DNA of 57,323 nt, taken from a virus (lineage: Duplodnaviria; Caudoviricetes). The stretch lies in IMG/VR virus record IMGVR_UViG_3300031658_003389, positions 1 through 57,323 of that record; one strand, written 5' to 3'. The notes beneath the pieces are model-generated. The model was given only the letters and a program-made list of their open reading frames with translations, ran no database searches and had not been told where the DNA came from. The position numbers and the translations under genes are program-made. Within the stretch, counting starts at the first letter, position 1; every line of letters starts with the position of its first letter. Shown here piece after piece: positions 7,931 through 57,323 of the stretch.

Positions 7931-8693
7931 AGAACACTTTGTAAAATTCAGAACTAAGTTAGAGGAGCAAGAACACTTTGCATTCTCTAGATATTCTGAT
8001 GGGGAAATGTACATCTTACAAAACAAAGAATTGGTTTTAGGTAATGGTGTAATACAAATAGGAGATGAAAAGCAGGGTGGTGTATATCAACAACCTGATT
8101 TCAAACACTTTGACCCAAATGAACATGGGTTCTATCAACAAAAGTTAGTTGAATCATTACAATACAAACAACACAATTATTTCAAAGGAATCAGTTGTAG
8201 TTGTTGTGTAGGTAAAGATGCATTTGATTGGCAAGTTGATTTAGCTGGTGGAGATGATGATTCATTAACTTGGGCAAACCTATGGGTTAATGGAAACTAT
8301 CCAATATTCATCACACATATACTACCTATATTTTATAGTAGAGATTGTGTATTTATTGGACATGAGGATGCTAACTTAGAAAGGTTACCATTCATCAAAA
8401 AAGATTTTAGAGTAGGTTATAACGCAATGATAAACGATTATGGAAAAATTGAAGAAATTAAACAATGGATTGGAGATAACAATATCACAAATCACGTATT
8501 CCTTTTCTCAGCTTCTACTTTCACCAACTTGGCAATTGTGGAGTTGTTCAGAGATTATCCCAATAATACTTATATTGATATTGGGACTTGCTTAACGCCA
8601 ATGATGGATATGCCAACACATAGGGGATATCTACAAGCATTTTGGAGTTACAAAGGTGGACAGGATATTCAAAAGATATGCAAATGGAATTAG
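7917..8693 (+). CDS. GT-D fold-like glycosyltransferase
   Basis: FSRYSDGE near the N-terminus and IDIG near the C-terminus. Confidence 0.6.
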   Translation: MKNFREHFVKFRTKLEEQEHFAFSRYSDGEMYILQNKELVLGNGVIQIGDEKQGGVYQQPDFKHFDPNEHGFYQQKLVESLQYKQHNYFKGISCSCCVGKDAFDWQVDLAGGDDDSLTWANLWVNGNYPIFITHILPIFYSRDCVFIGHEDANLERLPFIKKDFRVGYNAMINDYGKIEEIKQWIGDNNITNHVFLFSASTFTNLAIVELFRDYPNNTYIDIGTCLTPMMDMPTHRGYLQAFWSYKGGQDIQKICKWN

Positions 8694-9067
8694 TAAAATG
8701 TACAAAGGAATATTGGGAGTTTGTAAGAACTCTCAGAAACGATGAAAGAGTTATAAGTGGGTTCATAAAATCAGTACACATTACTGAGGAAATGCAAACC
8801 AATTATATGAAAGGTAATTCACACTACTATCGAATTGGTTTACTCAATGGTGAACCCGCTGGTTACGTTGGAGTTATTGAAGATGATATCAGAGTATGTA
8901 CTCATCCTGATTATCAAGGTAAAGGAATTGGTAAGTTTATGATTAATGAAATTATGAATGAAGAACCAACCGCATTTGCAAAAGTAAAAATGGATAATGA
9001 AGCTAGTATCAAATTATTTGAAGCTTGTGGATTTACAAAGAAATTTTATATATTAACAAAAGATTAA
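8684..9067 (+). CDS. GNAT N-acetyltransferase (PseH-like)
   Basis: Start ATG 8684; HPDYQGKGIG acetyl-CoA motif, NEASIKLFEACGF. Confidence 0.85.
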   Translation: MELVKCTKEYWEFVRTLRNDERVISGFIKSVHITEEMQTNYMKGNSHYYRIGLLNGEPAGYVGVIEDDIRVCTHPDYQGKGIGKFMINEIMNEEPTAFAKVKMDNEASIKLFEACGFTKKFYILTKD

Positions 9068-9069
9068 AT

Positions 9070-9696
9070 ATGTTACACAACCCATACAAAATAGTAAGAA
9101 TGTTTGAAGAGGAGATAGCTCATTATACTGGAGCACCTTATGCTATCTCAGTAGATAGTTGTACAAACGCATTATTTTTAGCTTGTAAGTATTTGGAAGT
9201 AACGGAAGTTACAATTCCATCACAAACTTACTTATCAGTACCACAATCAATCACACACGCTGGTGGTGAGGTTATCTTTGATAAGAGAGCAGAAGCAAAT
9301 CATTGGAAAGGTATGTATCAATTAAAACCATATCCTATTTGGGATGCGGCTAAGAGATTGACATCTGATATGTATGTACCTGGTCAATTTATGACTTTAT
9401 CATTTCATATTAAAAAACTACTTCCTATTTGGAAAGGTGGTATGATTCTAACCGATGATGCTGAAGCAGCAGATTGGTTTAAGAAAGCAAGATATGAAGG
9501 AAGAAGTGAAAAGTACTATAAGGATGATGATATTACATTTCATGGTTGGAATATGTATATGACTCCACAACAAGCTGCACATGGATTATCTATGTTTCAA
9601 AACTACCCAGAAAGTATGAGTGATTTAGGTGAAGATAATGGTTATAGAGATTTAACCGAATTCACTATATTCAAAGATACTAAAACAATACAATAA
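9070..9696 (+). CDS. DegT/DnrJ/EryC1/StrS sugar aminotransferase (short form)
   Basis: Start ATG 9070; SCTNALFLA, DAA, SFHIKK (PLP lysine), GGMILTDD. Confidence 0.85.
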   Translation: MLHNPYKIVRMFEEEIAHYTGAPYAISVDSCTNALFLACKYLEVTEVTIPSQTYLSVPQSITHAGGEVIFDKRAEANHWKGMYQLKPYPIWDAAKRLTSDMYVPGQFMTLSFHIKKLLPIWKGGMILTDDAEAADWFKKARYEGRSEKYYKDDDITFHGWNMYMTPQQAAHGLSMFQNYPESMSDLGEDNGYRDLTEFTIFKDTKTIQ

Positions 9697-10421
9697 TGAA
9701 AGCAGCTTTATGTTTACATGGGTTATTTGATTCTTCGGTGGATATCAGTTCTACTGGAATGGATGGGTATAATCACATCAAAAAGAATATCATAGATGTC
9801 ATTGATACTGATGTATTTGTACATAGTTGGGAAACTGAAAATATGAACACTATAAATAAATTGTACAATCCCAAATTATCTATATTTGAGGGGCAGAAAG
9901 ATTTTAGTAGTATTATTAGTACCAATGGATTAAATACATTAACATCACCTCCCAGAGCACCACAATCAGTTTTATCACATCTTTATAGTGTAACTGAATC
10001 TATGAAATTAGCATTCCAAACGGATACTAAATATGATGTTATAATTAAAGCAAGATTTGATTTAGGTAGGATTAATAGAAATACATCTGGACCAGGTTTC
10101 ACTAACCCATATCCAGTTCAATGTATTAATTTTAAAAGTAATATTGAAGATGATAAAATTTATATGGCAGATTGGCAATACTTTCATATGGGACCTGCTG
10201 ATATGTGGTTTTATGGTTCATCTGATGTGATGAAACACTTTACAACTTTATATAAATCATTGGAAGATAATATGAAGCTTGGTGGTGATTTTCATAAATT
10301 TGCATATAATATAGAAAAAAATCCAAACGATTTATCTAATTCAATTGCCTTTTACAAATGGTGGATGATGGAAAACGAACTTTGGGATAAACGAATAAAT
10401 TTAAATACAATATGGGAATAA
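9696..10421 (+). CDS. Glycan-associated protein, K-A-L-C-x-x-G family
   Basis: MKAALCLHG, DVFVHSW, YDVIIKARFD, DMWFYG; paralogous to the C-terminal half of 29996..31513. Confidence 0.6.
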   Translation: MKAALCLHGLFDSSVDISSTGMDGYNHIKKNIIDVIDTDVFVHSWETENMNTINKLYNPKLSIFEGQKDFSSIISTNGLNTLTSPPRAPQSVLSHLYSVTESMKLAFQTDTKYDVIIKARFDLGRINRNTSGPGFTNPYPVQCINFKSNIEDDKIYMADWQYFHMGPADMWFYGSSDVMKHFTTLYKSLEDNMKLGGDFHKFAYNIEKNPNDLSNSIAFYKWWMMENELWDKRINLNTIWE

Positions 10422-11098
10422 ACGTACCAATAGTAGTTTATACACACACCGATATGGTTGATACTTGGGAGATGTTTTTTGAACAACTCAAAAAATATTT
10501 ACCTAATAATAAAATATATGTTGCAATTAATGAAGAGCATGATTACTTATCAAATTATACTCAAATAACATATGATGATAATAGTAAATACTCAATACGA
10601 TGGCTAGAGGTACTATCTAAATTAGATGTAGAAACATTTCTATTTTTGCATGAGGATATGATATTATTTGATGATGTTAAATTTGATTATATTCAAAAAT
10701 ATTATGATTTGGTAAATAATGATATGGTTACATCAATAAAACTCATTTACACAACTTCATATGAATTACCATCTGAAATTGATAATACATTAGTAAAAGC
10801 TGTTTTTTCTATTCAACCCACTTTGATAAACCGAAAATATTTCGTATCTTTGTGTAAATCAGTAGGAGCTGTAAACATATGGGAATTTGAAGCGGCAGTT
10901 CAACCTAGCGAAACTGATTATATGGTAAAGTTGGGTAACGAAACACTAAGAGGTGAATTTCATTGTGATAGTAGTGTATTCCCTTACATAGCAACAGCTA
11001 TTAATAAAGGTAAGTGGAATATGGGTGAGTATAGGGATGAATTGGATAAATTATTTGGGAAGTATAATATCAACCCATTTGAAAGAGGAATAGTATGA
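10412..11098 (+). CDS. Putative GT-A-like glycosyltransferase
   Basis: FLFLHEDMIL acidic motif, FSIQPTL, WEFE, KGKW; operon context. Confidence 0.5.
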   Translation: MGINVPIVVYTHTDMVDTWEMFFEQLKKYLPNNKIYVAINEEHDYLSNYTQITYDDNSKYSIRWLEVLSKLDVETFLFLHEDMILFDDVKFDYIQKYYDLVNNDMVTSIKLIYTTSYELPSEIDNTLVKAVFSIQPTLINRKYFVSLCKSVGAVNIWEFEAAVQPSETDYMVKLGNETLRGEFHCDSSVFPYIATAINKGKWNMGEYRDELDKLFGKYNINPFERGIV

Positions 11099-12462
11099 AA
11101 ACAAAATTAGTAATTTACGATTTAGATGGTGTATTGGTTGAGGCTAAAAACATCCACTTTGATGCATTGAACGATGCATTAGGAAAAGAATATGAAATCA
11201 GTTGGGCTGAGCACCTATCAACTTATGATGGTTTAAAAACAAATCAAAAGTTAGAGATGTTGAGTGAGAACAAAGGTTTACCAACTGAACAACATTCTGA
11301 TATTTGGGAAAAGAAACAAAAGTACACATTGAAAATGTTGAAAGAGTTAAAACCCAATATAGAATTGCAATCGTTAATGAGTTCATTGGTTGATGATGGG
11401 TATAAGATTGCAGTTTGTTCTAACTCAATTAGAAAGACTGTACTGACAGTTCTATCTAAATTGGGTATAATGGAATATATGGATTTAGTTATATCTAATG
11501 AAGATGTTAAAAACTCTAAACCACATCCAGAAATGTATTGGAAAGCAATATCAATGATGAGTTGTTTACCCGGTGAAACTTTAATTGTAGAAGATTCACC
11601 ATACGGATTACTTGCAGCATCTCGTTCTAACTCACACATTCTTAGAGTAAAGAACCCAGATGAAGTAACATATGATAATATATACAAAAAGTTAAAAGAA
11701 ATTAAAATGGGAAAAACAAATGATAAACCCAAGTGGGTAGATGAAAAGCTGAATGTATTAATACCAATGGCGGGGGCTGGAAGTAGGTTCGCTACTGCTG
11801 GATATACATTCCCAAAACCACTAATAGATGTGGAGGGTAAACCTATGATTCAATTGGTAGTTGAGAATTTGAACATAGATGCAAATTACATATATGTAGT
11901 TCAGAAATCACATAGAGAAAAATTCAACTTAGATACCTTACTAAATCTAATAACACCAAATTGTACTATTGTAGAAGTTGATGGTGTAACTGAGGGGGCT
12001 GCTTGTACTGCTTTATTGGCTAAAGAATTTATTGATAATGGTAATCCATTGTTCTTCGCTAATTCTGACCAATTTGTAGAATGGGATTCAAATGAGTTTT
12101 TCTACAAAATGAATGAGAATGATTGCGATGGTGGTATTCCAGTGTTTCGTTCAACCCACCCTAAGTGGAGTTTTGCTAAGTTAGATGAAGATGGGTTCGT
12201 AACTGAAGTACAAGAAAAGAATCCAATCTCAGATTTAGCAACCATTGGTTTCTACTATTGGAAGCAAGGTTCTGATTTTGTGAAATACTCAGAAGAGATG
12301 ATTGAGCAAGAAATCAGAGTAAATGGTGAATTCTATGTATGTCCTGTTTATAATAACGCTATCAAAGGCGGATTAAAGGTGAGAACATTTGATACACCTA
12401 AAATGTGGGGATTGGGAACCCCTGAAGATTTAAAACATTATTTAGAAAATTATGGTAAATAA
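11095..12462 (+). CDS. HAD phosphatase fused to sugar nucleotidyltransferase
   Basis: N-terminal YDLDGVLV, SNS, KPHPE, VEDS; C-terminal IPMAGAGSRF, PKPLI, EK..IS, GLGTPEDL. Confidence 0.9.
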   Translation: MKTKLVIYDLDGVLVEAKNIHFDALNDALGKEYEISWAEHLSTYDGLKTNQKLEMLSENKGLPTEQHSDIWEKKQKYTLKMLKELKPNIELQSLMSSLVDDGYKIAVCSNSIRKTVLTVLSKLGIMEYMDLVISNEDVKNSKPHPEMYWKAISMMSCLPGETLIVEDSPYGLLAASRSNSHILRVKNPDEVTYDNIYKKLKEIKMGKTNDKPKWVDEKLNVLIPMAGAGSRFATAGYTFPKPLIDVEGKPMIQLVVENLNIDANYIYVVQKSHREKFNLDTLLNLITPNCTIVEVDGVTEGAACTALLAKEFIDNGNPLFFANSDQFVEWDSNEFFYKMNENDCDGGIPVFRSTHPKWSFAKLDEDGFVTEVQEKNPISDLATIGFYYWKQGSDFVKYSEEMIEQEIRVNGEFYVCPVYNNAIKGGLKVRTFDTPKMWGLGTPEDLKHYLENYGK

Positions 12463-17140: not shown

Positions 17141-17428
17141 ATGAAAATCAATATTAAAGCAGGTGGTAAAACTCACAAAGTTGAGTTTAAGTTTATACCC
17201 CAACTAAAAAACAAAGGGTTAATCGCTATCGCAAAAAGTTCTAAAGAATTGGATGCACTTCAGTTAGCTATCGCAGATAGAGCTGGTGGTGATGAACTGA
17301 TTGATTATATCATATTAAAAGAATTAGATAAGAAATTAAAATTACCTGTTGAAATTGACCATAGTTATGATGGTGCTGGATACGGATTTGTATTTGATTT
17401 CTACACAATAGCAAAAAAACTAAATTAA
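17141..17428 (+). CDS. Hypothetical protein
   Basis: ORF after TATATTTATA motif, adjacent to the next gene. Confidence 0.6.
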   Translation: MKINIKAGGKTHKVEFKFIPQLKNKGLIAIAKSSKELDALQLAIADRAGGDELIDYIILKELDKKLKLPVEIDHSYDGAGYGFVFDFYTIAKKLN

Positions 17429-17429
17429 G

Positions 17430-19598
17430 ATGGCAAAACCAAAGATGCAAACAATCACTCGTAAGGATTGGGATAAGAAACATAAAGATTTTAAACTAAT
17501 CGGTAAGGATAAGATTCCTTACATTATGGTTTATGATAATGGTACAAAGTTAATCCCAGTGAAAATCATAGAGGGTGAAATTGAAGAAAGTGTTGCATCA
17601 GCAATAGACCAAATTAGACAAGATTCAAAAGATATTAGAGATTTCTTAAAGAAGGTATTTTCGGATAGTGATTTCAGAGCAATGAAAAACGATAAAGATT
17701 TCGTTCAGTATCTTAAATCAATATATGAAGGAGTATCGGTAAACGAATCATCTAACGTTAGCAAACGTAGAGCTGGTGCTGAATTAAAACAAAAATTAAA
17801 AGGTAAACGTTCTGATGGAATGGGTAAATATACCGCTACTATCTACGGAATGGATTCAGCTGGTAAGCGAGTTGAATTAAAAAGTTTAAATGATTTAAAC
17901 AAATATTCTGAATTTGAGTTAGATGAATCAGTAGTTAATGAAGGTAGAGGTATTAACGCTATCTCAAAACTACAACAAAAGAACATTGATGATATTGCTA
18001 AGGCATTGGATTTCTATAAGAAAAACAAAGATACAGATAAAAAGGAAGCTTTTATAAAGGTTCTTAAAAAACTTGGTGATGAAAAGAAGAAGTTGGCTAA
18101 GGAACTTGATGATAAAGTTAGTGGTATGTATAAGGATGCTGAATACAAAGGTGAATCAGTAGTTACTGAAGCTGGTGATACAAAAGTAACTCTAACAAAA
18201 AGAAGAGCAAATTTGGTTAAATCAAACGAAAGATTTGGTAACTTAGAATCAAACCCCAATCGTAGAAAAAAGATATCTGTTAATAATGCAGAAATTAAAT
18301 CAATTGACTCTAAATTGAAATCGTTAAGTAAAAACGAATCAGTAGTAAACGAAGGTAAATTCAAAAAGGATGATTTAGTTTATAATAAAAGAACTAAGAC
18401 TGTTGGTATCGTAAGATTAGGTGATGATAAATCAGGTGAAGTGAAAACTGATGCTGATGGTAATGTGGATGTAGATGAATTGGAAAAATATAATCCAATT
18501 AAAAACAAACACCAAAACAATGCAAAGGTTGCACCATCTACTGAAAAGGAAGTAAGTAAGAGAGGTTTATTTAATCCATTCAAAAACGAATCAGTAGTTA
18601 CTGAAGCTAAAGAAGATGATGTTATCATTCAATTAAGAAAAATTGTAAAAGATAAACAAAACGCTTTAGTAGTTGATACTAAATCAAAGAAGAAAGTAAG
18701 AGTAGATATGCAATCAGCATCTCTAATGGTTCAAGTATATGATGCACTTAAACAACAATCTAATAAAGATAAGTTTGTAAAGAGTGGTATTGTAGCAATG
18801 GGACATATGGCATACAAACTTATGAAGAATGAGGATGTAAACGAAGGAGATGGGTTATGGGCAAACATAAGAGCTAAGAAAGCTAGAGGTGGGAAACCTG
18901 CACACAAAAACTCAAAAGCTCACAAAGATGCAGTTAAAGCTGGTAATAAAATAAATAAATCCGAATCAGTAAATGAAGGAAAATTTATTGCATTCTACAA
19001 CAAAAAGCAGTATAAGATAAATGGTACTGATTTATGGGATGCTAAGAAAAAGGCAATTGCACAATTAAAGATACCTAAATCAAAGCAAGGGTTGTTAGCA
19101 ATCAAATCTGAGAAATCAATGGCTAACCAAGATTTTAAATTCGAATCAACAATTTCAGAAGCTAAGGCATTCGTAGTAATGTTTAAAGTTAAGAAAGATA
19201 TTAACAATAGAAATATAAAACCAGCATCAGCTGCATATTCAAGCGAAGTAGATGCTAAGAAGTTCTTAAAATCAGTTGAAAAGGATGGTGGAAAGGCAAT
19301 GATAATTCGTTCAAACATTTCGGGCATGAAAGTTAACGAAGCTAAGGATGAGATATATTTCAAATCTTATACTCATGCTATTGAAGCTGCTGAAGTAATG
19401 GCTGGTAAAAAAGGGTACACTATTGAAGATGATGAGTTGTTCAACAAAGTAGGTATGAATTCAAAAAGACCTTCAGTTGGTAAAACAACTAAAGTAAATT
19501 TGGAATTACTTAAAAATGGTAAACCTCAAAAGAAAATGTTACACATTCAAGTATATGGTATGAAGAATGGGTACGAATTGAACGCATACATAAACTAA
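17430..19598 (+). CDS. Modular Lys-rich polyprotein, putative internal head protein with repeated ESVV(N/T)E linkers
   Basis: About ten unrelated 40-85 aa segments separated by SVNE, ESVVNE, ESVVTE, ESVVNE, ESVVTE, EDVNE, ESVNE, ESTISE, KVNE. Confidence 0.7.
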   Translation: MAKPKMQTITRKDWDKKHKDFKLIGKDKIPYIMVYDNGTKLIPVKIIEGEIEESVASAIDQIRQDSKDIRDFLKKVFSDSDFRAMKNDKDFVQYLKSIYEGVSVNESSNVSKRRAGAELKQKLKGKRSDGMGKYTATIYGMDSAGKRVELKSLNDLNKYSEFELDESVVNEGRGINAISKLQQKNIDDIAKALDFYKKNKDTDKKEAFIKVLKKLGDEKKKLAKELDDKVSGMYKDAEYKGESVVTEAGDTKVTLTKRRANLVKSNERFGNLESNPNRRKKISVNNAEIKSIDSKLKSLSKNESVVNEGKFKKDDLVYNKRTKTVGIVRLGDDKSGEVKTDADGNVDVDELEKYNPIKNKHQNNAKVAPSTEKEVSKRGLFNPFKNESVVTEAKEDDVIIQLRKIVKDKQNALVVDTKSKKKVRVDMQSASLMVQVYDALKQQSNKDKFVKSGIVAMGHMAYKLMKNEDVNEGDGLWANIRAKKARGGKPAHKNSKAHKDAVKAGNKINKSESVNEGKFIAFYNKKQYKINGTDLWDAKKKAIAQLKIPKSKQGLLAIKSEKSMANQDFKFESTISEAKAFVVMFKVKKDINNRNIKPASAAYSSEVDAKKFLKSVEKDGGKAMIIRSNISGMKVNEAKDEIYFKSYTHAIEAAEVMAGKKGYTIEDDELFNKVGMNSKRPSVGKTTKVNLELLKNGKPQKKMLHIQVYGMKNGYELNAYIN
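17925..18605 (+). repeat. Dispersed 18-bp in-frame linker repeats GAATCAGTAGT(T/A)A(A/C)(T/C)GAA
   Basis: Copies at 17925, 18153, 18336, 18588; variants at 18963, 19143, 24890, 25340. Confidence 0.85.
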
Positions 19599-19617: not shown

Positions 19618-19878
19618 ATGAGTAAACCAAAGGCTAGAGTTTCTGTTGAAGTCCGTAAGGGTGATATTAATAGGGCTTTAAAAATCTTCAAAAGAAGGGG
19701 GTTTGATAGTGGACATATCCAAGAATTAAAGGATAGGAAAGAATACACTAAACCAACTACTTCTAAACGAAGAGAAAAGCAAAAGGCTATTTACATACAG
19801 AAGTTGAAAACAATTGAAGATAAAGATGAAAGGGGTGACTTAAACGAAACTCCCGATAAAAAAAGTAAAAGGAGATAA
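19618..19878 (+). CDS. rpsU: Ribosomal protein bS21, phage-encoded
   Basis: VEVRKGDINRALKIFKRR, ELKDRKEYTKPT..KRREKQKAIYIQ match the bS21 pattern. Confidence 0.9.
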   Translation: MSKPKARVSVEVRKGDINRALKIFKRRGFDSGHIQELKDRKEYTKPTTSKRREKQKAIYIQKLKTIEDKDERGDLNETPDKKSKRR

Positions 19879-19884
19879 ACTATC

Positions 19885-22290
19885 ATGGCAGACAATATTA
19901 AAATATCCGCATTAACCGAATTAGTATCTGGTTCAATTACTGGAACTACCATAGTTCCTCTTGTTGACGGTGGTGTAACTCTAAAAGCACAAATGTCATC
20001 ATTAAAGGCATTTACAAATTCAGATGTGGCAACTGATGCAGAATTAGCTAATCAGATTGCTAGTGTAAACAATACTATTAGTGGTTTGGGTACTGATGAT
20101 ATTTCAGAAGGTACTGCTCAATTTTATACTGATGCTAGGGTTAAAACTAAATTAGATACCGAAGGTGTACTAAGTGGTTCTTTTCCTGCTGGATTTAACT
20201 TAGGTGTTATTGGTGGAGGAACTTCAGTAAGTACTGTTGATTCTATCACTGTTTACGGAGCTGATGTAACTGATAATGGTAGTGGTGATATAGCTTTATC
20301 AATTAATAGTGGTTCTCTAAGTATAAGTGATGGTGTAAGAACCGCAAGTAATGTAAATACAATTAATGTTACTGGTGGTAATGTAACTGCTACAGATGGC
20401 CAGATGACACTTACATTAACTACTGATTTATTAAATACGTTTACTGGTTCTATTGATAACAGAGTGGAGTTATTGGAATCTGAATCAATTAATAACGATA
20501 ATACATCTTTAAATACATTTACCGGTTCTATTGATGGTCGAGTTGACACATTGGAATTAGCTGGAAATGATAGCGATAATGCACAATTGAATTTATTCAC
20601 AGGTTCGTTTTCATCATCAGTTGAAACTAGAATAACTACGATAGAAGATACACCACAATCTGTATCTGAAGATACTGTTTCTGGTTCACAGCAAATTAGT
20701 GATTTTGGATTCATCTCATCATCTAGGAAATTTATTTCAGATACACTTACAATAACATCCGCTAGTATTACTGGTGATGTAACACTTGAAGTACCAGTTG
20801 GTGGTGGTGGAGGCGAAGGGGGTGATGTTTCATTTAATAGTAATTATCATATCATATCCCAATCTGTTGCAGATGGTAGTGATACTAATTTAGAATTAAC
20901 AAACATAAAGATTGGAACTGGACTAAATAATTTTCAATTTATACATTTCTCTGAATCTTTAAATAGTAGATTTGGAGCCGGTGGTGGTAGTGATTATATT
21001 CAAACTGTAACATTTGGTGAAAATGCATTAACATTTACAGGTGTAGGATCTGGGTTTAATGGAGACGTACAATTAAGTACGGGTATAATATCAGGCTCAT
21101 CTCAATTAGATACGTTAGGATATTTATCGGATAGTAATGTAACTCCGATTTATATAGAAGCAAAATTACCTAGGAACTTAGTAAGTGGCTCTACTCAATT
21201 AATTGAGTTAGGGGTACCTCTAAACGAAAACACCGCATCATTAGCACTTAATGTTAATATCTCTGGTTCATTTACTGAACTATCCGCATCCATTGCATCT
21301 GACATAGCTGAATTGGATGGGGTATCATTATCATTAGGTGAAGCGACTCGCTCTTTATTAGAAGGTGGTTCATCCGATGCTTTAGGAAATGTAATAAACT
21401 TAGTTTCATCATCAGGTCAAATACAAGAAGCAATATCAGATGCATATATATCAGCATCTGCCGCAGGAAGTGGATTTGGTTCTGGAGAAAATGTAGCCGA
21501 TGATATTGCAAATCTGTATGTATTTACTGGTTCCATTGATACTAGAGTAACTACAATTGAGGGGTTAGATATTGATAACGCATCCATAAACATATTTACA
21601 GCTTCATTCTCATCTTCGATAGATGGTAGAGTATCTACATTGGAAGTGGATAGTGGTGGATTAACTGAAGTTAGTTACAGTGAACTATCTCAATCATATG
21701 ATTCATTTAATTCTAATTTAATATTAGATAGAGTACGAATTGGTGGAGATAGTGGAAACTATACATTTAGAGAGGTATCACAATCATTTGATGCTAGAAT
21801 AAACGGAATAAGTGGGGTTACTGGGTTAGCTGGATTAAGTGATGTGGGTACAATAACTGTTGATGTAGCTGAAGGTGATATCTTAGTATATGATTCAGTA
21901 GCACAAGAATTTACACATAGCCAGGATTTAACTGGTAATTATAAAATAACTGGTTCAATTGATACAAAGGGTTCAATCAACGTAAGTGGTTCGGTAACCG
22001 CTGATTCATTTATCGCTGGGGATGTTGGTACACCAACTATAAGTGCAGCAACTACATTAGAAATTGATGCTGGTAACACTATACAAATTACGACTGGAGG
22101 GGGTGGTTTAATACTATCTTCATCAGCCGATGTTAGAGTTAACCATATGTTAACCTTAGAAAAAACAATTGGAAATCCATCAGCATCACCATTAACTGGT
22201 AGTATGATGAATAGTGGTAGTATTGGAACCGATTCCAAATTATGGTTCTTTAATGGAACTGAATGGAAAGAAATACAATTCGTATCATAA
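19885..22290 (+). CDS. Ser/Gly/Thr-rich fibre-like virion protein
   Basis: MADNIKISALTEL start, TDDISEG..FYTDARV, five (L/I)xxFT(G/A)S...RV..(L/I)E repeats, L..LSDV motif, C-terminal LWFFNGTEW. Confidence 0.7.
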   Translation: MADNIKISALTELVSGSITGTTIVPLVDGGVTLKAQMSSLKAFTNSDVATDAELANQIASVNNTISGLGTDDISEGTAQFYTDARVKTKLDTEGVLSGSFPAGFNLGVIGGGTSVSTVDSITVYGADVTDNGSGDIALSINSGSLSISDGVRTASNVNTINVTGGNVTATDGQMTLTLTTDLLNTFTGSIDNRVELLESESINNDNTSLNTFTGSIDGRVDTLELAGNDSDNAQLNLFTGSFSSSVETRITTIEDTPQSVSEDTVSGSQQISDFGFISSSRKFISDTLTITSASITGDVTLEVPVGGGGGEGGDVSFNSNYHIISQSVADGSDTNLELTNIKIGTGLNNFQFIHFSESLNSRFGAGGGSDYIQTVTFGENALTFTGVGSGFNGDVQLSTGIISGSSQLDTLGYLSDSNVTPIYIEAKLPRNLVSGSTQLIELGVPLNENTASLALNVNISGSFTELSASIASDIAELDGVSLSLGEATRSLLEGGSSDALGNVINLVSSSGQIQEAISDAYISASAAGSGFGSGENVADDIANLYVFTGSIDTRVTTIEGLDIDNASINIFTASFSSSIDGRVSTLEVDSGGLTEVSYSELSQSYDSFNSNLILDRVRIGGDSGNYTFREVSQSFDARINGISGVTGLAGLSDVGTITVDVAEGDILVYDSVAQEFTHSQDLTGNYKITGSIDTKGSINVSGSVTADSFIAGDVGTPTISAATTLEIDAGNTIQITTGGGGLILSSSADVRVNHMLTLEKTIGNPSASPLTGSMMNSGSIGTDSKLWFFNGTEWKEIQFVS

Positions 22291-22303: not shown

Positions 22304-23908
22304 ATGGTAACGTATAATGTAATATTACATAAAGGTGTAGATTATCAATCCTTTTGGAATGATATGGAAAACGAAAACGATGGGGGTAATTTATATATCC
22401 CCAATCGAACAGTTGATTCACCTAATCAAAGATTAAATTCACAAAGACAAACTTGGTACACACTTTCGGAAGTAGAAGCTGAAAATGTAAGAAACGATGA
22501 AAGAGTTTTTGTGGTAGAGATTCCACCTGAAAATAGAGATGATATAATTATAGGACATCATGCAACTCAAGTTGGTACATTTACAAAAACAACATCGGAT
22601 AGTGGTAATTATCAAAATTGGGGATTAATCAGAGTATTATCTAAGGATAATATTTATGGTACATCAACAACTACTTCAGAAAATTACACATACACATTAA
22701 CTGGAAAGGGTGTTGATGTTGTAACACAAGATAGTGGAATGCAAACTGACCACCCTGAATGGGTAGATAGATTCGAATCAGTAGATTGGGGTAGTTATGG
22801 TGCATTCACACAAAACGCAAATCACGATAGAGATTTCGATGGACATGGTTCACATTGTGCTGGTATAGCTGTTGGTAAAACTTTTGGATTCGCTAAGGGT
22901 TCTAAGGTATTTAATCAAAAGATATCTGGATTGGAAGGTAGTGGAGATAGTGGAACTGGTATTTCACCTTCATTTGCATTTGATGCTATTAAAGGTTGGC
23001 ATAATGCTAAACCAATCGATACTATAACTGGATACAAAAGACCAACTGTTGTAAATATGAGTTGGGGATACCTATCGTTAGGTAAGGATTCTGAATTTAC
23101 AAATATAACTTATAGGGGAGCTAGTAGTAGTGGTGGTGATATCGATACCGCTGGTGAGAGGGAAACTAACTTTGGTTTAATGAGTAATCCGTATGATGTA
23201 AATGGTGGTAATACTAGATACGCAATTAATAACAGAATCTCTTCAATTGATACTGATATAGAGGAATTATTAGATGCTGGTGTACATATATGTGTAGCTG
23301 CGGGTAATCGTTCCAATAAAACCGATGAAGTTGGTGGAGATGATTATAATAACACATATTCAATTGGTAGTGGTAATAAGTTTTATCATAGAGGTTCATC
23401 CCCATATGGTGATGCAGCAATGGATGGTTCACAAAGAGCTATCATAGTTGGTAATATAGATTCATCCGTATCATCAGGAACTTTAGATAGAAAAGCAACT
23501 TCATCCGAAACTGGACCTGGTGTTGATATCTACGCAGCTGGAACAAACATAATGAGTTCAACTTCCACTACAAACAGATGGGGAGGTGGTTCTCAAAATT
23601 ACACACTAAACACTAATTTTAAACAAACTAATATAACGGGAACATCAATGGCATCACCTCAAGTAGCTGGTGTATTGGCTTGTATATTAGAACTACATCC
23701 AGAATTCACTCCAGCACAAGGTAAACAATGGTTATTAGATAATGCTGGTTCAGCTATTCTAAATACTGGAACTGGTAATGATTGGACAAATGATAGAAGT
23801 TTAAAGGGTGGTGAAGCAAAGGTATTGTATATGCCATTTAGTAACCCAATACCAATTAAAGTGACTGGATTACCAGTAACCTTTAATTTGAGTATCAAAG
23901 AAAGATAG
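22304..23908 (+). CDS. Subtilisin-like S8 serine peptidase
   Basis: Catalytic D (QDSG), H (HGSHCAG), S (GTSMASPQVAG), oxyanion AAGN. Confidence 0.95.
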   Translation: MVTYNVILHKGVDYQSFWNDMENENDGGNLYIPNRTVDSPNQRLNSQRQTWYTLSEVEAENVRNDERVFVVEIPPENRDDIIIGHHATQVGTFTKTTSDSGNYQNWGLIRVLSKDNIYGTSTTTSENYTYTLTGKGVDVVTQDSGMQTDHPEWVDRFESVDWGSYGAFTQNANHDRDFDGHGSHCAGIAVGKTFGFAKGSKVFNQKISGLEGSGDSGTGISPSFAFDAIKGWHNAKPIDTITGYKRPTVVNMSWGYLSLGKDSEFTNITYRGASSSGGDIDTAGERETNFGLMSNPYDVNGGNTRYAINNRISSIDTDIEELLDAGVHICVAAGNRSNKTDEVGGDDYNNTYSIGSGNKFYHRGSSPYGDAAMDGSQRAIIVGNIDSSVSSGTLDRKATSSETGPGVDIYAAGTNIMSSTSTTNRWGGGSQNYTLNTNFKQTNITGTSMASPQVAGVLACILELHPEFTPAQGKQWLLDNAGSAILNTGTGNDWTNDRSLKGGEAKVLYMPFSNPIPIKVTGLPVTFNLSIKER

Positions 23909-23950: not shown

Positions 23951-25675
23951 ATGATTTACGAAGAAATAACAGAAGATATATTAAACGAAAAGTTAATTAC
24001 ATATGGTAATAGAAAACCATATGGACAAGTTGTATTTGTTGCAGGTGGAGCTGGTAGTGGTAAGGGATTCGCAATTGAAAACTTTTTAGATTCAGCATCA
24101 TTTAAATTAAGAGATGTGGATGAGATAAAAAAACAAATCCAAATTTTAAATAGAATGGGTAAGTTGGATATCAATTCGATTACTAAAAAGTACGGAAGAA
24201 ATATCAAACCAAAGGATTTGGAGTTAATTAACAAAATACAAGATAAAGGATATAAATTACAAAACCTAAATCTAAAGAACCCAGACCACGTATATGCTTT
24301 ACATATATTAGTAGATGCTATTGGTATCAAAGATAAATCATTAATAACTTTATTAAGGGGTAAGAATAACCCAGAAACACTACCAAACATATTATTTGAT
24401 ATAACTGCAAAGAAAGTAACATCAATTACTTCGGTGGTAGCTCAGTTGAAGGCTGTTGGTTATAAAGCTGATAATGTTCACTTAACTTGGATACTTACAA
24501 ATTATGTTACGGCAATGGTTAACAATAAGAACAGAGCTAGAATGGTACCTGATGATATTCTTTTACAAACACACGAAGGTGCAACTAATACTATTTGGGG
24601 GATTATAACTAAGGCACTTCCTAAAGGTATGAATGGTAGAGTTGATGTAATTCTAAATAATCCACAAAACACTGTATTCCTAAAAGATTCAGATGGTAAG
24701 GAAATTGAAAAGACACAAAAAAATAATCAGAAAGAAAAAAGAGATATAAAGGTAAAATTTACATCTGGATTTCTTTCATTACCTCTTAAAAAGGCAAAGG
24801 GTGGCATATTTCCAGAAAAGTTTTGGAAGGATAAATTATTTAGATGGGTTATGAATAACGCACCACAATCCATAACAGCAAATATGAAAGAATCGGTTGT
24901 AAACGAAGGATATATTGATAATTATGATTTATACGTAACTCAATTCAAAAAACGAAGATTTAAGAAAACAGCAAATAGTTCAAATTACGGAGATGAGTTT
25001 TGGTATAAAGAGTACCCATTAGGTAGGTTTGTTGTCACCATCGGCGAATCTGACGCTAAGAGATTACGATTTAGTTATAGTGTATATTTCAACCCATTTC
25101 CTAAATATAAAAAGGTATTTTTTGGATTAATAAAAACTAAAAAGAAGCAATTAGGAAAATTTATTAATTACAAAGAAGATATAATTGATTTTGGCGAGGG
25201 GTTATTCAAAATAGATGATAATGTATTCATTAAAAAATTATTCAAAGTGGTAGATGCCGCAGAACAGCATGTAAAGAAAATCACCAAAGTAGATTACGAG
25301 TCATATAAAGATAGCGAAAACAGGCACCATACAGCATTAGAATCGGTAATTACTGAAAAGCAATTTAAAGGTTTAGATGGAATTGATGCTAAAACACCTT
25401 TAACTAAAATCTCAGATGTACAAAAACTAAAAATCATACAATCAACTGGAAATATTATTTCGTTTTTCGTTCCAACGGGATTTGATAGAAACTTTTGGCA
25501 AGTAATATCAACAGGTAAAATTAAAAAAGGAAAAGATTTATCAGGAGGTGTAGTTTATATTCTAAATGGTAAAATGATAAATTCCCCAAAATTCAAATCT
25601 ATAAAAGATTTAATTAAAGGGGTTGATTGGGCATCGGTTGAAAAATCCCGTAGATTTAATGAATCCAATAAATAA
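23951..25675 (+). CDS. P-loop kinase (zeta-toxin/Pnk-like) with two appended modules
   Basis: VVFVAGGAGSGKG, RDVDE, ILFDIT, NKNRARMVP; then ESVVNE and ESVITE linkers. Confidence 0.7.
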   Translation: MIYEEITEDILNEKLITYGNRKPYGQVVFVAGGAGSGKGFAIENFLDSASFKLRDVDEIKKQIQILNRMGKLDINSITKKYGRNIKPKDLELINKIQDKGYKLQNLNLKNPDHVYALHILVDAIGIKDKSLITLLRGKNNPETLPNILFDITAKKVTSITSVVAQLKAVGYKADNVHLTWILTNYVTAMVNNKNRARMVPDDILLQTHEGATNTIWGIITKALPKGMNGRVDVILNNPQNTVFLKDSDGKEIEKTQKNNQKEKRDIKVKFTSGFLSLPLKKAKGGIFPEKFWKDKLFRWVMNNAPQSITANMKESVVNEGYIDNYDLYVTQFKKRRFKKTANSSNYGDEFWYKEYPLGRFVVTIGESDAKRLRFSYSVYFNPFPKYKKVFFGLIKTKKKQLGKFINYKEDIIDFGEGLFKIDDNVFIKKLFKVVDAAEQHVKKITKVDYESYKDSENRHHTALESVITEKQFKGLDGIDAKTPLTKISDVQKLKIIQSTGNIISFFVPTGFDRNFWQVISTGKIKKGKDLSGGVVYILNGKMINSPKFKSIKDLIKGVDWASVEKSRRFNESNK

Positions 25676-52476: not shown

Positions 52477-52562
52477 ATGAAGATACTGAAGCTTGTGTTA
52501 TTTATTATAAGTGAATGGATTAAGGAAAAGAATAAGAACAGAAGAAAATCAAAGTGGGATTT

Positions 52563-53588
52563 ATGAATAAATTAGATAAAGAATACCAAATGTTACTTGA
52601 ATATATTTTAGGTAACGGAGTGGAAAAGAAAGATAGAACTGGTACAGGTACTATATCTGTATTTGGTACCCAAATCAGACACGATATGAGTGATGGGTTC
52701 CCTTTACTAACTACCAAACGAATACCTGTTAAGACTATGATGACTGAATTAAAATGGTTCTTAAAGGGAGATACTAATATCAAATATTTAGTTGATAATG
52801 GTTGTAACATTTGGAATGGTGATGCTTATAAAAAATACCATCAAGCATTCCCTGAAACTGAAATGTTATCTCAAGAACAATTTATCACTTTAATTAAAAC
52901 CAATGATGAGTTTGCAGAGAAGTGGGGTGAGTTAGGTCCAATTTATGGTAAGCAGTGGCGTAACTGGGAAACTGGATTTGATGAATTCGAACGGAATGAA
53001 CATACACCAATTGACCAAATCAAAAACCTTTTAGAACAACTAAAAACAAATCCAAATTCTCGAAGGCTAATGGTTTCGGCATGGAATGTTGGAGAGTTAG
53101 ACAAAATGACCCTTCCTCCTTGTCATTATGGATTCCAAGTTTACACTAGGGAGTTAAGTGATAAAGAGAGGTATGATTATTGGTGGAAAAATAATTATGA
53201 GACAGGTATGGAATACAATGAATCTAACATACCTAATTTTGATGATGATTATTATACGAAAACACCTAAGAGGTCTATATCCTTAATGTGGAATCAAAGA
53301 AGTGTTGATACATTCTTAGGGTTACCATTTAACATTGCATCATATGGTATGTTACTCACCCTACTCGCAGAAGAGGTTGGGATGATACCTGATGAACTTA
53401 TTGGTAATTTGGGAGATACTCATTTATATCTTAATCATATTCAACAAGCAAAAGAGCAAATAAATAGAGAACCTTATCAATTACCAACAATTGAAATACA
53501 TATGAGTGATATATTAAATGGTGAGTTTGATTATGAACTTGCATATTACCAATATCACCCAACTATAAAAGCACCATTAAGTAATTAA
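52563..53588 (+). CDS. thyA: Thymidylate synthase
   Basis: DRTGTGT, FPLLTTK, LGPIYGKQWR, LPPCH, QRSVDTFLGLPFNIASY, GDTHLYLNH. Confidence 0.97.
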   Translation: MNKLDKEYQMLLEYILGNGVEKKDRTGTGTISVFGTQIRHDMSDGFPLLTTKRIPVKTMMTELKWFLKGDTNIKYLVDNGCNIWNGDAYKKYHQAFPETEMLSQEQFITLIKTNDEFAEKWGELGPIYGKQWRNWETGFDEFERNEHTPIDQIKNLLEQLKTNPNSRRLMVSAWNVGELDKMTLPPCHYGFQVYTRELSDKERYDYWWKNNYETGMEYNESNIPNFDDDYYTKTPKRSISLMWNQRSVDTFLGLPFNIASYGMLLTLLAEEVGMIPDELIGNLGDTHLYLNHIQQAKEQINREPYQLPTIEIHMSDILNGEFDYELAYYQYHPTIKAPLSN

Positions 53589-56014: not shown

Positions 56015-57323
56015 ATGGCAAATAAACAAATTAAATTTAATTCAGAAGCTAGAGAAGCTTTAAAGACAGGCTTGGATACATTAGCTAATGCAGTTCGTGT
56101 AACCCTTGGACCCGCAGGTAGAAATGTATTATTACAAAAGGGACCAGGTTCACCACACATTACAAAGGATGGTGTATCGGTAGCAAAGGAAATCCACTTA
56201 AAGGATACCTTTGAGAATATGGGTGCACAATTAGTGAAGGAAGTATCACAACGAACTGCTGATGCAGCTGGTGATGGTACAACCACTGCTACTGTACTAG
56301 CTCAAAGCATTGCTGCTGAGGGGTTTAAGTATGTAAATGAGGGAGTTAATCCAATCTACCTTAAAAGAGGTATGGACAAGGCTGTTGAGGTTGTAGTAGA
56401 TGAACTATCTAAACAATCGGTGAACGTTGGTGATAAAATAGAACAAATTGCAACTATCTCAGCAAATAGTGATACTAACATTGGTAAACTTATAGCTGAA
56501 GCATTTGATAGAGTTGGTAAAGATGGCGTAATTACTGTTGAAGAAGCTAAGGGTATTGAAACTTCTATGGAAGTTGTAGATGGTATGCAGTTTGATAAGG
56601 GTTTCCTTTCAACTCACTTTACAACCAACCAAGAAAAGATGTTGGCTGAATTAGAAAACCCATACATCCTTACATATGATGGCAGAATTTCTAATATGAA
56701 TGATATGTTATCTATCTTAGAAGGATGTGCACAATCATCTAAACCATTACTAATCATAGCTGATGATGTAGAGGGAGAAGTGTTAGGTACATTGGTAGTT
56801 AACAAACTTAGAGGAGCTCTTAATGTATGTGCAGTTAAAGCACCAGCATTCGGAGATAGAAAGAAACAAATAATGCAAGATATCGCTACTGTAACTGGTG
56901 GTACATTTATAACTTCTGAGATTGGAATGAAATTGGAAGATGTAACTATGGATATGTTGGGTATAGCTGAAAAGGTTATTGTAGGTAAAGATAATACTAC
57001 AATTATTAATGGAGCTGGTTCCGCTGAAGATATTGCTGAGAGAATTACTCAAATCAAAACTCAGATGGATGATTCAACATCAGATTACGAAAAAGAAAAG
57101 ATGCAAGAGAGATTAGCTAAGTTAGCTGGTGGTGTTGCAGTTCTTTATATCGGAGCAGGTTCTGAAGTTGAGATGAAAGAAAAGAAAGATAGAGTTGATG
57201 ATGCACTTCAAGCTACTCGTGCAGCAATTCAAGAAGGAGTTGTTGAAGGTGGTGGAATTGCATTACTTAGAACTGTGAAAGCACTTACTAAGTTTCTTGA
57301 TAATACTGATTTAAGTCCCGAAG
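56015..57323 (+). CDS. groEL: Chaperonin GroEL (3' partial; absent from ORF track)
   Basis: [63 protein letters not shown]. Confidence 0.97.

Follow-up and report, generated by a model that had tools for sequence, protein, structure and literature searches.

What is known of the proteins that phages inject comes mostly from T4 and a few giant phages, in which one gene encodes one protein. The T4 internal proteins have diverse mature parts, only the element for targeting and cleavage being described as conserved (PMC3012670, PMC9026906), and the corresponding locus of T-even phages is reported to hold different genes behind a conserved leader (Repoila et al. 1994, as cited in PMC3012670 and PMC9026906). 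T4 ipII and ipIII have in common a 10 aa leader ending I-A-E, followed by Ala. Lysines of these proteins are reported to contact DNA, and mature IPI* is given as 76 residues (PMC3012670). The prohead proteases of T4, phiKZ and SPN3US are all described as cutting C-terminal to Glu; in phiKZ, 201phi2-1 and SPN3US, inner-body or ejection proteins are cut in this way at short motifs by gp175/gp245, sometimes at several sites per protein, and proteases of the phiKZ/SPN3US type also remove their own C-terminus (PMC5694885, PMC9026906).

Mosaic multidomain proteins have also been described in phages. Polyvalent proteins, as reported by Iyer et al. 2017 (PMC5512222), comprise 2 to 15 domains per polypeptide with extensive mosaicism, are predicted to be packaged in virions and delivered to the host, and have recognisable enzymatic or effector domains, often with an embedded zincin-like peptidase. 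Similarly, the gp38 adhesins of T-even phages are described as having hypervariable segments between conserved glycine-rich motifs, with exchanges within or near these motifs (PMC3157838).

The gene analysed here lies in a stretch of phage DNA of 57,323 nt (the window), and the phage hosting it is best read as a roughly 250 kb uncultured marine T4-like myovirus. No description of such a gene was found in the literature searched. Like T4 IPI, IPII, IPIII and Alt, it specifies small basic proteins (modules of 44-85 aa) bounded by a hydrophobic-x-Glu site and then a small residue, and relatives of the window have a 10-residue leader comparable to that of ipII and ipIII (for example MIKLKDLLNE/E, the slash marking the putative cut). 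By contrast with the T4 proteins, up to 14 joints are found in one reading frame, with one N-terminus for many putative products. The window protein begins with a 49 aa module ending KIIE/G in place of a short leader, and has no sequence homology to IPI, IPII, IPIII or Alt (tblastn against phage records; PHROG, Pfam and NCBIfam families). Whereas the T-even internal-protein locus consists of separate genes, the cassettes here are in frame, with a conserved 15-21 nt joint. The many domains and mosaic architectures recall polyvalent proteins, yet the modules belong to no known family and the joint fits a separately encoded prohead protease, unlike the embedded peptidase often described for those proteins. 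In the phiKZ, 201phi2-1 and SPN3US cases described, cuts strip propeptides off single large proteins, with no series of unrelated mini-domains, and follow A/S/G-x-E rather than the V/I/L/M-x-E found here. As in gp38, short conserved in-frame motifs bound variable segments, but the gp38 motifs are described as the structural core of one domain, with fixed order and non-viable deletions (PMC3157838), whereas in the present gene complete, independent modules are gained, lost and rearranged.

The explanation we favour, at a probability of roughly 70%, is that the polyprotein is a precursor of internal head cargo proteins that would be processed by the prohead protease, its modules being shuffled as cassettes. 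If so, a single gene supplies the heads of abundant marine phages with a dozen unrelated mini-proteins, and recombination re-deals this set at a joint serving both as a protease site and as a patch of DNA homology. Phage heads would then have a natural delivery format that carries several cargoes and processes itself; hundreds of small phage proteins, probably acting early, could be catalogued with their boundaries read from a motif; and one short sequence would offer a clear case of selection at both the protein and the DNA level.

Anatomy of the polyprotein gene

The region singled out by the original prediction coincides with exactly one ORF, encoding 722 aa (Table 1). About ten dissimilar basic modules joined by ESVV(N/T)E-like linkers had been noted, and 11 modules separated by ten joints were delimited. 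Ten of the 11 have a pI of at least 8.8, and lysine makes up 17.6% of the protein, which is lysine-rich along its whole length. With linker residues removed, pairwise comparison of the modules detected no similarity (best E 0.06).

Every joint has a hydrophobic P3 residue and Glu at P1 (residues 49, 106, 171, 247, 308, 392, 472, 516, 577 and 637), followed at P1' by Gly (n = 5), Ala (n = 4) or Ser (n = 1), and six are of the E-S-(V)-V-x-E type. Shuffled proteins score far lower: the pattern E-[ST]-x(0,1)-[VILM]-x-E occurs six times, whereas 5000 shuffles average 0.09 (maximum three, none reaching six), and [VILM]xE[GAS] occurs 13 times where 2.1 are expected (0 of 5000 shuffles reaching 13). 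Across 1069 distinct joint contexts, P5 is Glu in 39%, P4 Ser in 34%, P3 Val in 49% and P2 Asn in 40%, while Ser, Ala and Gly together account for 60% at P1'. At some joints of relatives P1' is instead Ile, Phe, Glu or Lys, and these may be poor cleavage sites.

Table 1. Features of the polyprotein gene and its surroundings (window coordinates; modules other than M10 end at the P1 Glu)
Feature	Position	Strand	Evidence
95 aa ORF, ends 1 nt before polyprotein start, no leader here	17141..17428	+	BLASTP
Polyprotein gene (722 aa): 11 modules, 10 joints of protease type	17430..19598	+	ORF, motif statistics, homologues
M1a, 49 aa, ends KIIE/G (cut after Glu), conserved N-terminal module, candidate targeting domain	17430..17576	+	
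M1b, 57 aa, acidic (pI 4.7), ends VSVNE then S	17577..17747	+	
M2, 65 aa, ends DESVVNE then G	17748..17942	+	
M3, 76 aa, ends GESVVTE then A	17943..18170	+	
M4, 61 aa, ends NESVVNE then G	18171..18353	+	
M5, 84 aa, ends NESVVTE then A	18354..18605	+	
M6, 80 aa, ends NEDVNE then G	18606..18845	+	
M7, 44 aa, ends SESVNE then G	18846..18977	+	
M8, 61 aa, ends FESTISE then A	18978..19160	+	
M9, 60 aa, ends GMKVNE then A	19161..19340	+	
M10, 85 aa, conserved C-terminal module	19341..19595	+	
Linker ESVVNE (GAA TCA GTA GTT AAT GAA), core GAATCAGTAGT	17925..17942	+	
Other linkers with GAATCAGTAGT core	18153-18170, 18336-18353, 18588-18605		
Ribosomal protein S21 homologue, directly downstream of polyprotein, context marker	19618..19878	+	Pfam E 3.6e-12
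Peptidase_S8 subtilase gene, rival candidate protease	22304..23908	+	Pfam E 1.2e-28
Other gene with linkers, 574 aa: aa 1-319 P-loop domain, followed by two modules	23951..25675	+	
Linkers of 574 aa gene: ESVVNE then G; ESVITE	24890-24907; 25340-25357		

Neither the whole protein nor any module scored above cut-off in Pfam, PHROGs or NCBIfam; in Pfam this applied to all 11 modules, with no recognisable effector or enzymatic domain. The whole protein gave no tblastn match among 50,697 phage records, and its best PDB match by sequence had an E of only 0.23. The M10 profile aligned with 28 residues of ribosomal protein uS12 at a non-significant E of 0.07. Structure prediction covered M10 alone among the modules: the AlphaFold model is a compact alpha/beta domain with a pLDDT of 85. 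It had no Foldseek match in the PDB at E<=1e-3, reached at best a Z of 5.1 in a wide VIA-align search, below the meaningful level, and in the BFVD matched uncharacterised phage proteins only (best E 0.015). In the ESM Atlas, all matches of M10 were to viral clusters without a name (95-110 aa, scores up to 0.83), and M5 had no usable named match.

Module exchange and linker DNA

If the original prediction is right, related phages should carry different sets and orders of modules, broken at the linkers. Orthologues are indeed not colinear: 261 distinct relatives comprise about 220 module families in 183 architectures. Gain, loss and reordering exactly at the joints show up in protein comparisons, in DNA comparisons and in contigs assembled from other runs. 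Junctions between relatives fall exactly at Glu/Gly or Glu/Ala, and 43% of the points where homology breaks off are no more than 5 aa from a site, as against 14% at random.

Individual modules illustrate this. In L059, a 92%-identical allele stands in for the whole of M2 between flanking modules that are 99-100% identical, and an 89%-identical allele for M7; 29 of its 36 mismatches to the window fall inside these two modules (P 3e-17). M5 is cleanly missing from P0025 and from contigs of runs X17 and X18 (joints 18344>18603 and 18347>18600), M7 is present twice in P0026, and M8 is missing from the 731 aa variants P0002-P0024 as well as from L059 and L060. M6 has neighbours from 29 different families on the left and 17 on the right. 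M1b occurs apart from M1a in other proteins, its family (family 2) having 17 left and 31 right neighbour families, all different, and in some variants a 29 aa insert is placed exactly after the terminal Glu of M1a.

The two ends of the chain are more constant. Of 100 members of the M1a family, 98 have it as their first segment, and 97 of the 261 proteins begin with it. M10 is the last or sole segment in 132 of 132 family members; its family has 1741 clusters (50% identity) at E<=1e-3 among 1.84 billion representatives, the match being C-terminal in 142 of 150 clusters among the matches listed.

The polyprotein gene was found in 19 public runs from 14 studies, two of which runs may be the source sample; contigs of RNA libraries also cover it, and these may be DNA. 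Contigs of other runs diverge from the window at the first linker with the GAATCAGTAGT core, and 13 of the 19 loose ends listed, with seven of eight joint ends, fall in linker windows making up 10.7% of the stretch. Similarly, blastn HSPs to variant genes overlap at the linker (gene nt 496-516 and 720-744). The architectures come from metagenome assemblies, as do the relatives throughout, and single full-length combinations could be chimeric; near-identical modules in common also create branch points in assembly graphs, appearing as loose ends. It is nevertheless scarcely credible that the shuffling as a whole is an artefact of contigs chimeric across repeated linkers or common modules. Independent sources yield identical architectures, with the 731 aa form seen in 23 clusters (ENA, JGI and Tara) and that of the window in five contigs, and branch points at linkers require one module to have different neighbours in the sampled DNA. 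Lineages diverged to 50-60% module identity also differ in architecture, and the finished genome of the cultured Methylophilales phage Melnitz, which grows on an OM43 host, encodes an M10-like domain flanked by MDE/A and ISE/E in a 462 aa protein (gene 20). The paper describing Melnitz makes no mention of internal proteins or polyproteins.

A DNA core was said to recur in four linkers, including at synonymous positions, and GAATCAGTAGT was found in exactly those four (P1 Glu 171, 247, 308 and 392), the two ESVVTEA linkers being identical over 21 nt. Such identity inside a single gene carries little weight, because GAA, TCA and GTA are the commonest codons there (0.76, 0.36 and 0.53). It is only across 112 linkers of many genes, with the consensus GAA TCA GTA AAC GAA, that synonymous-site conservation of the joint convincingly exceeds codon bias: for the residue concerned, linkers use AAC in 83% of cases and the remainder of these genes in 40%, GTA in 85% versus 48% and TCA in 66% versus 38%. 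Codon bias alone, named with the original prediction as grounds for refuting it, does not account for the identity, and the difference persists when one linker is kept per cluster of upstream modules (52 clusters; p about 1e-8, 1e-7 and 1e-4). Preferential recombination at the linker is here indistinguishable from selection for in-frame, cleavable products. The likening of the locus to an integron array stands as a functional analogy only: the cassettes are in-frame protein modules, and no integrase or recombinase family was matched in PHROGs by the 60 window ORFs.

Proteases and leader peptides in related phages

Any protease acting on the window protein has to be deduced from relatives, because the window is a 57 kb fragment with no match to a prohead protease, nor to an MCP or terminase. 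The polyprotein gene lies outside any head cluster, adjoining a fibre-like gene and the S8 protease gene, and the T4 late-promoter word TATAAATA gives no signal, with 14 matches where 16 are expected. A 253 kb record, G013, is syntenic with the window over orf181, orf110, HAD, S21, the fibre-like gene, S8 and orf574 (47-82% aa identity) and encodes a T4-type Peptidase_S77 prohead protease (E 4.8e-30; L095 9242-9829); in another of 274 kb (G014), S8 and S77 genes are both present. These were used in place of the long records G004 and G005, which were dropped as near-complete relatives, having no S77, MCP or terminase match, and which we infer to be incomplete.

An S77-like protease lies within 10 kb of M10 in 16 of 35 M10 loci. 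Where modules are encoded as separate genes in relatives, these adjoin the S77 protease gene and start with leaders of 9-11 residues like that of the T4 internal proteins; a 9-12 aa leader ending at Glu is the N-terminus of 80 of the 261 proteins. For example, L014 has five consecutive genes starting MIKLxxL(L/V)xE/ between its protease and scaffold/MCP genes, and stand-alone M10 genes of 96-99 aa with the leader M(M)IKLTQILTE/A occur in 16 of 35 loci. M3 is the first module in shorter relatives, behind leaders such as MKISELKE..., and M5 is the C-terminal module of a 452 aa protein adjoining the prohead protease in L005. The slot taken by the polyprotein gene in the window holds a single gene of leader plus M10 in L017 and L023, and three small genes in G013, where M6 is a separate 82 aa gene in that slot with the leader MIRLTEILNE/G. 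Within the window, the 95 aa ORF upstream of the polyprotein matches a leader-bearing 140 aa head-cluster gene of L014 (BLASTP E 5e-10) and is also homologous to the first module of the L029 polyprotein, and an S21 gene likewise follows leader-bearing or polyprotein genes in L005, L014 and G013. Head-cluster proteins of relatives have ESVNE/ joints, and their proteases carry MNE/S or LNE/G at the C-terminus. In the cultured Flavobacterium phage immuto, a 361 aa protein of the head cluster has sites resembling those of the leaders. The original assignment of the joints to a prohead protease is thus supported by the S77 genes and T4-like leaders of relatives; the window itself contributes neither.

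The same pattern bears on whether the chain might remain uncut, as beads on a string in, for instance, a DNA-coating or structural protein, with ES(V)VNE merely a favoured flexible or structural linker. The lysine content throughout would suit this, as would the lack of a small P1' residue at some junctions, but the linker has the P3, P1 and P1' preferences of Glu-specific prohead proteases, and this very pattern closes the leaders of single-module relatives and is found again in the C-terminal region of the protease itself. Such strict retention of the P1 Glu, and of the linker codons, would be surprising in a mere spacer, and an uncut chain appears quite unlikely.

We consider it very improbable that the joints are cut by the S8 subtilase encoded two genes downstream, as in multi-core precursors with a dedicated subtilase, in a process unrelated to head assembly. 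The S8 gene does lie between the two linker-bearing genes of the window, and keeps this neighbourhood in L001/L009, L010/L011, L017, L023 and G013. However, the co-occurrence is not obligate: none of five related records with linker-bearing genes (G009, G010, G011, G012 and G002) had an S8 match, and S77 proteases adjoin those genes there. The S8 protein has matches to tail fibre PHROGs as well, the polyprotein N-terminus, read directly from the sequence, is hydrophilic with no signal-peptide-like stretch, and the modules are domains of 44-85 aa rather than short core peptides.

Proposed fate of the modules

Under the favoured reading, that of a head-processed cargo precursor, the 11 small, mostly basic domains would be translated as one chain that enters the prohead core, probably via the conserved N-terminal M1a, the C-terminal M10 or both. 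A T4-type prohead protease (Peptidase_S77, gp21-like) would then cut each (E-S-)V/I-x-E joint on the C-terminal side of its P1 Glu, and the freed modules would remain in the head with the DNA, like T4 internal proteins, probably to be ejected together with it. The in-frame joint would in effect substitute for the stop codon, start codon and 10-residue targeting leader that separate the same modules in relatives.

Fragments of T4 gp22 are degraded and leave the head. The pieces of the polyprotein might likewise be cut by the prohead protease and yet be disposable scaffold or core filler, degraded and lost from the head instead of being retained or injected. The genes of relatives sit among core and scaffold genes, and extra cleavage sites in SPN3US are reported to help clear propeptides from heads (PMC5694885). 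Such a fate is nonetheless unlikely: the modules are of folded-domain size, M10 being predicted to be compact, and are basic like the retained internal proteins described for T4 (PMC3012670), and the free variation in module content between near-identical phages argues against an essential scaffold role.

For modules retained as cargo, neutralisation of DNA charge and early interference with the host or its defences are candidate roles. M10, with a mean column identity of 61% and 25 invariant columns, is conserved in a manner unlike a fast-evolving counter-defence protein. A wider proposal, which we put forward tentatively and with the odds somewhat against it, is that the joint has a dual use, as a head-protease site and as a DNA homology patch for in-frame module swaps by T4-type recombination. 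A group of marine phages of 250 kb would in this way keep an exchangeable library, of at least 220 families in 261 proteins, of small capsid-delivered proteins brought in by a single targeting module and set free within the head. Once injected, the modules would act early, in counter-defence or in taking over the host, an occasional module being an enzyme, like the P-loop domain.

Such an enzyme-like domain, absent from the window polyprotein but joined to the chain in relatives, adds to the likeness to polyvalent proteins. The 1380 aa protein P0377 has the P-loop domain of the 574 aa gene (77% identity) fused to about 13 modules, the last of them M6 and M10; the P-loop domains of P0377 and P0099 have a weak Zeta_toxin match. 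The middle module of the 574 aa gene is absent from P0377, the gap lying exactly between that gene's two linkers.

Organisation of the polyprotein gene and its linkers

The window, a 57,323 bp viral contig of 32% G+C and an estimated completeness of 31%, has all its genes on one strand. Its polyprotein ORF is divided by ten joints, short hydrophobic-x-Glu sites, into 11 modules of 44-85 aa, designated M1a, M1b (together M1) and M2 to M10. The residue following the joint Glu (P1') is Gly, Ala or Ser at all ten, and six have the long form E-S-(V)-V/I-x-E. Shuffled sequences contained on average 0.09 copies of this long motif, and 2.1 matches to [VILM]xE[GAS] against 13 in the polyprotein; neither observed count was reached in any of 5,000 shuffles. 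The original observation of about ten dissimilar, basic modules separated by ESVV(N/T)E-like linkers holds: ten of the 11 have a pI of at least 8.8, Lys constitutes 17.6% of the polyprotein, and no mutual similarity was found once linker residues were removed (best E value 0.06). None of the 11 had a match in Pfam, PHROGs, NCBIfam or PDB sequences.

Coordinates of features in the window and in related records (↓, predicted cut after the P1 Glu)
Feature	Record	Position	Strand	Description
Polyprotein ORF	window	17430-19598	+	single ORF, 722 aa
Joints, P1 Glu	window polyprotein	aa 49, 106, 171, 247, 308, 392, 472, 516, 577, 637		ten sites, P3 hydrophobic
Ribosomal protein S21 homologue	window	19618-19878
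S21 homologue	L005	12003-12305
S21 homologue	L014	11608-11850
S21 homologue	L094	11139-11399
Ser/Gly/Thr-rich protein	window	19885-22290		801 aa, repeated NTFTGSIDxRV motifs
Peptidase_S8 subtilase	window	22304-23908		534 aa
Second linker-bearing gene	window	23951-25675		P-loop domain, then two modules
Joint in second gene	window	24890-24907		ESVVNE↓G
Joint in second gene	window	25340-25357		ESVITE
Thymidylate synthase	window	52554-53588
GroEL-type chaperonin	window	56015-57322
Melnitz gene 18	L082	5803-7755		650-aa hypothetical protein
TonB-dependent receptor	L046 (in G005)	8078-11338	+	1086 aa

The shared DNA core, GAATCAGTAGT, was confirmed in the four linkers for which it had been proposed, and two linkers are identical across 21 nt. 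Within this gene alone such identity is weak evidence, because the core uses the commonest codons; across 112 distinct ES[VI][VI]?[NT]E linkers from 76 ORFs, by contrast, codon choice departs sharply from that for these residues at other sites in those genes. The P2 Asn is encoded by AAC in 83% of linkers against 40% elsewhere (p = 4e-15), the P3 Val by GTA in 85% against 48% (p = 2e-13), and the P4 Ser by TCA in 66% against 38% (p = 8e-7); the bias persists when each of 52 upstream-module clusters contributes a single linker (p about 1e-8, 1e-7 and 1e-4, respectively). As AAC is a minority codon elsewhere, codon bias does not explain the linker codons. These data fit copying and homogenisation of linkers by recombination, and are compatible with either a recombination hotspot or selection on the products.

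Module exchange among relatives

With at most about 8000 scored candidates per search, homologues comprised at least 622 proteins of 397-1264 aa, at least 937 shorter and at least 15 longer. On those listed, the query modules were present, absent or reordered, with ends at module borders, and in close variants the junction falls exactly at Glu↓Gly/Ala. Hence P0025 lacks M5 (junction ...NESVNE↓AKEDD...), M1 is joined to M3 in P0027, M6 to M10 in P0028 and M3 to M6 in P0036, while P0026 has two copies of M7. Cutting 261 distinct proteins at the motif yielded 1418 segments in 220 families (86 with at least two members), arranged in 183 architectures, bearing out the expectation that modules vary in presence and order with breakpoints at linkers. 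Within 5 aa of a site lie 43% of 2907 homology breakpoints, which are mutually non-independent, against 14% at random.

The M1a family is the first segment in 98 of 100 members, and the M10 family the last or only segment in 132 of 132, with 35 different left-neighbour families. M10 is strongly conserved and occurs very widely, its family comprising 1741 clusters at 50% identity; the match is C-terminal in 142 of the 150 clusters listed. Its predicted model is a compact alpha/beta domain (pLDDT 85) with no convincing known fold. An M10 profile gave a weak, non-significant match (E value 0.07) to a 28-residue stretch of archaeal/eukaryotic ribosomal protein uS12; the S21 gene adjoins.

At the DNA level, blastn matches between the window gene and its variants share an overlap of 21-25 nt where a linker lies. 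Between the window and the related locus L059, 29 of 36 mismatches fall in M2 and M7 (15 and 14; P = 3e-17), with none in 318 nt of M1 or 435 nt of M9 and M10, and 0-2 per module from M3 to M6. Contigs from four other sequencing runs, three of them RNA libraries, were aligned to the gene; their joints skip M5 (two runs), M4 and M5, and roughly M3 to M5. Seven of eight joint ends, and 13 of the 19 loose ends listed from a total of 29, lie in linker windows covering 10.7% of the stretch. All the sequence is assembled metagenome, and single full-length module combinations may be chimeric. That shuffling is purely an artefact of such assembly is argued against by the recurrence of the same architectures across sources, and by a related arrangement in the finished genome of the cultured phage Melnitz. 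Melnitz gene 18 has the leader-like start MKKFSEIIE↓A; M10 is carried by gene 20, two genes further downstream, and gene 22 is HAD-like, matching the presence of a HAD-like gene downstream in the window.

Candidate protease and proposed processing

No T4-type S77 prohead protease or head gene was matched in the window, a 31% complete fragment. At related locus L005, a Peptidase_S77 gene (E value 2.8e-28) is flanked by multi-joint proteins, with S21, scaffold and major capsid protein (MCP) genes downstream. In L014 the order is portal, other genes, protease, five consecutive genes starting MIKLxxL(L/V)xE↓, then S21, scaffold and MCP; one of the five carries M10 and another is a homologue of the 95-aa ORF just upstream of the polyprotein gene in the window. 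A prohead protease lies within 10 kb at 16 of 35 M10 loci, and a window-type S8 neighbourhood occurs at five of the 35.

Two long relatives, G004 (188 kb) and G005 (207 kb), both share the window's gene order and are rated 97-100% complete. Tail and replication genes are present, with no match to terminase, MCP or S77 prohead protease in either; both are taken as incomplete. Relatives of 253-274 kb do have these genes, and completeness estimates for this phage group look too high. In G013 (253 kb) and G014 (274 kb) a window-type S8 gene (identity 73% and 59%) occurs alongside an S77 protease gene (E values 4.8e-30 and 8.6e-29). In the G013 counterpart of the window slot (orf181, orf110, HAD, ..., S21, fibre-like, S8, orf574) there are three small genes, of which one starts MIRLTEILNE↓G and continues with an M6-like module; joints in the G013 head cluster are of the ESVNE↓ form, and the C-terminus of the G013 protease reads ...PMNE↓S. 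A lone leader-plus-M10 gene of 96-97 aa occupies the slot in L017 and L023. By MCP, the closest cultured relatives are Flavobacterium phage immuto (52%), Microcystis phage Mel-JY01 and Rhodothermus phage RM378.

The S21 homologue lies directly 3' of the polyprotein or leader-bearing genes, a pairing kept in head-cluster and window-type contexts, though the block's location differs.

T4 ipII and ipIII share a 10-residue N-terminal leader ending I-A-E then A. According to reviews, such leaders direct internal proteins to the prohead core, processing depends on residues 8 and 10, and the leader is the sole conserved part of otherwise diverse proteins (PMC9026906, PMC3012670). In the chains, an in-frame joint would stand in for 'stop, start and leader': one chain would enter the prohead, and the S77 protease would free the modules by predicted cleavage. 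The window's own S8 subtilase is an unlikely cutter of the joints, because linker-bearing genes occur in five of five related records without an S8 match.

The subtilase has additional matches to PHROG families annotated as tail fibre protein. Its 801-aa neighbour has no family match, and the pair is kept in L001, L010, G005 and G013.

Related systems and other genes

The second linker-bearing gene begins with a P-loop domain weakly matching Zeta_toxin (E value 0.0018, below cut-off). In P0377 (1380 aa) the same domain heads a chain of about 13 modules ending M6, M10, and the second gene's middle module is absent, the gap falling exactly between its two linkers; an enzyme-like domain can thus form part of a chain, which brings such chains closer to polyvalent proteins (PMC5512222). 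Other related systems are T4 internal proteins with targeting leaders, phiKZ/SPN3US multi-site processing and gp38 adhesins, which undergo motif-bounded shuffling (PMC3157838). In the literature searched, no account was found of a polypeptide that strings together unrelated mini-domains through sites for a prohead protease; wider literature could change this.

The TonB-dependent receptor, opposite in strand to nearly all other G005 genes, comprises CarboxypepD_reg, Plug and OMP barrel domains, an architecture characteristic of SusC-like receptors in Bacteroidota; the gene may hint at the host or be auxiliary. The window's chaperonin shares 62% identity with one from Bacteroides phages, and the window also encodes several glycosyltransferases and nucleotide-sugar epimerases.
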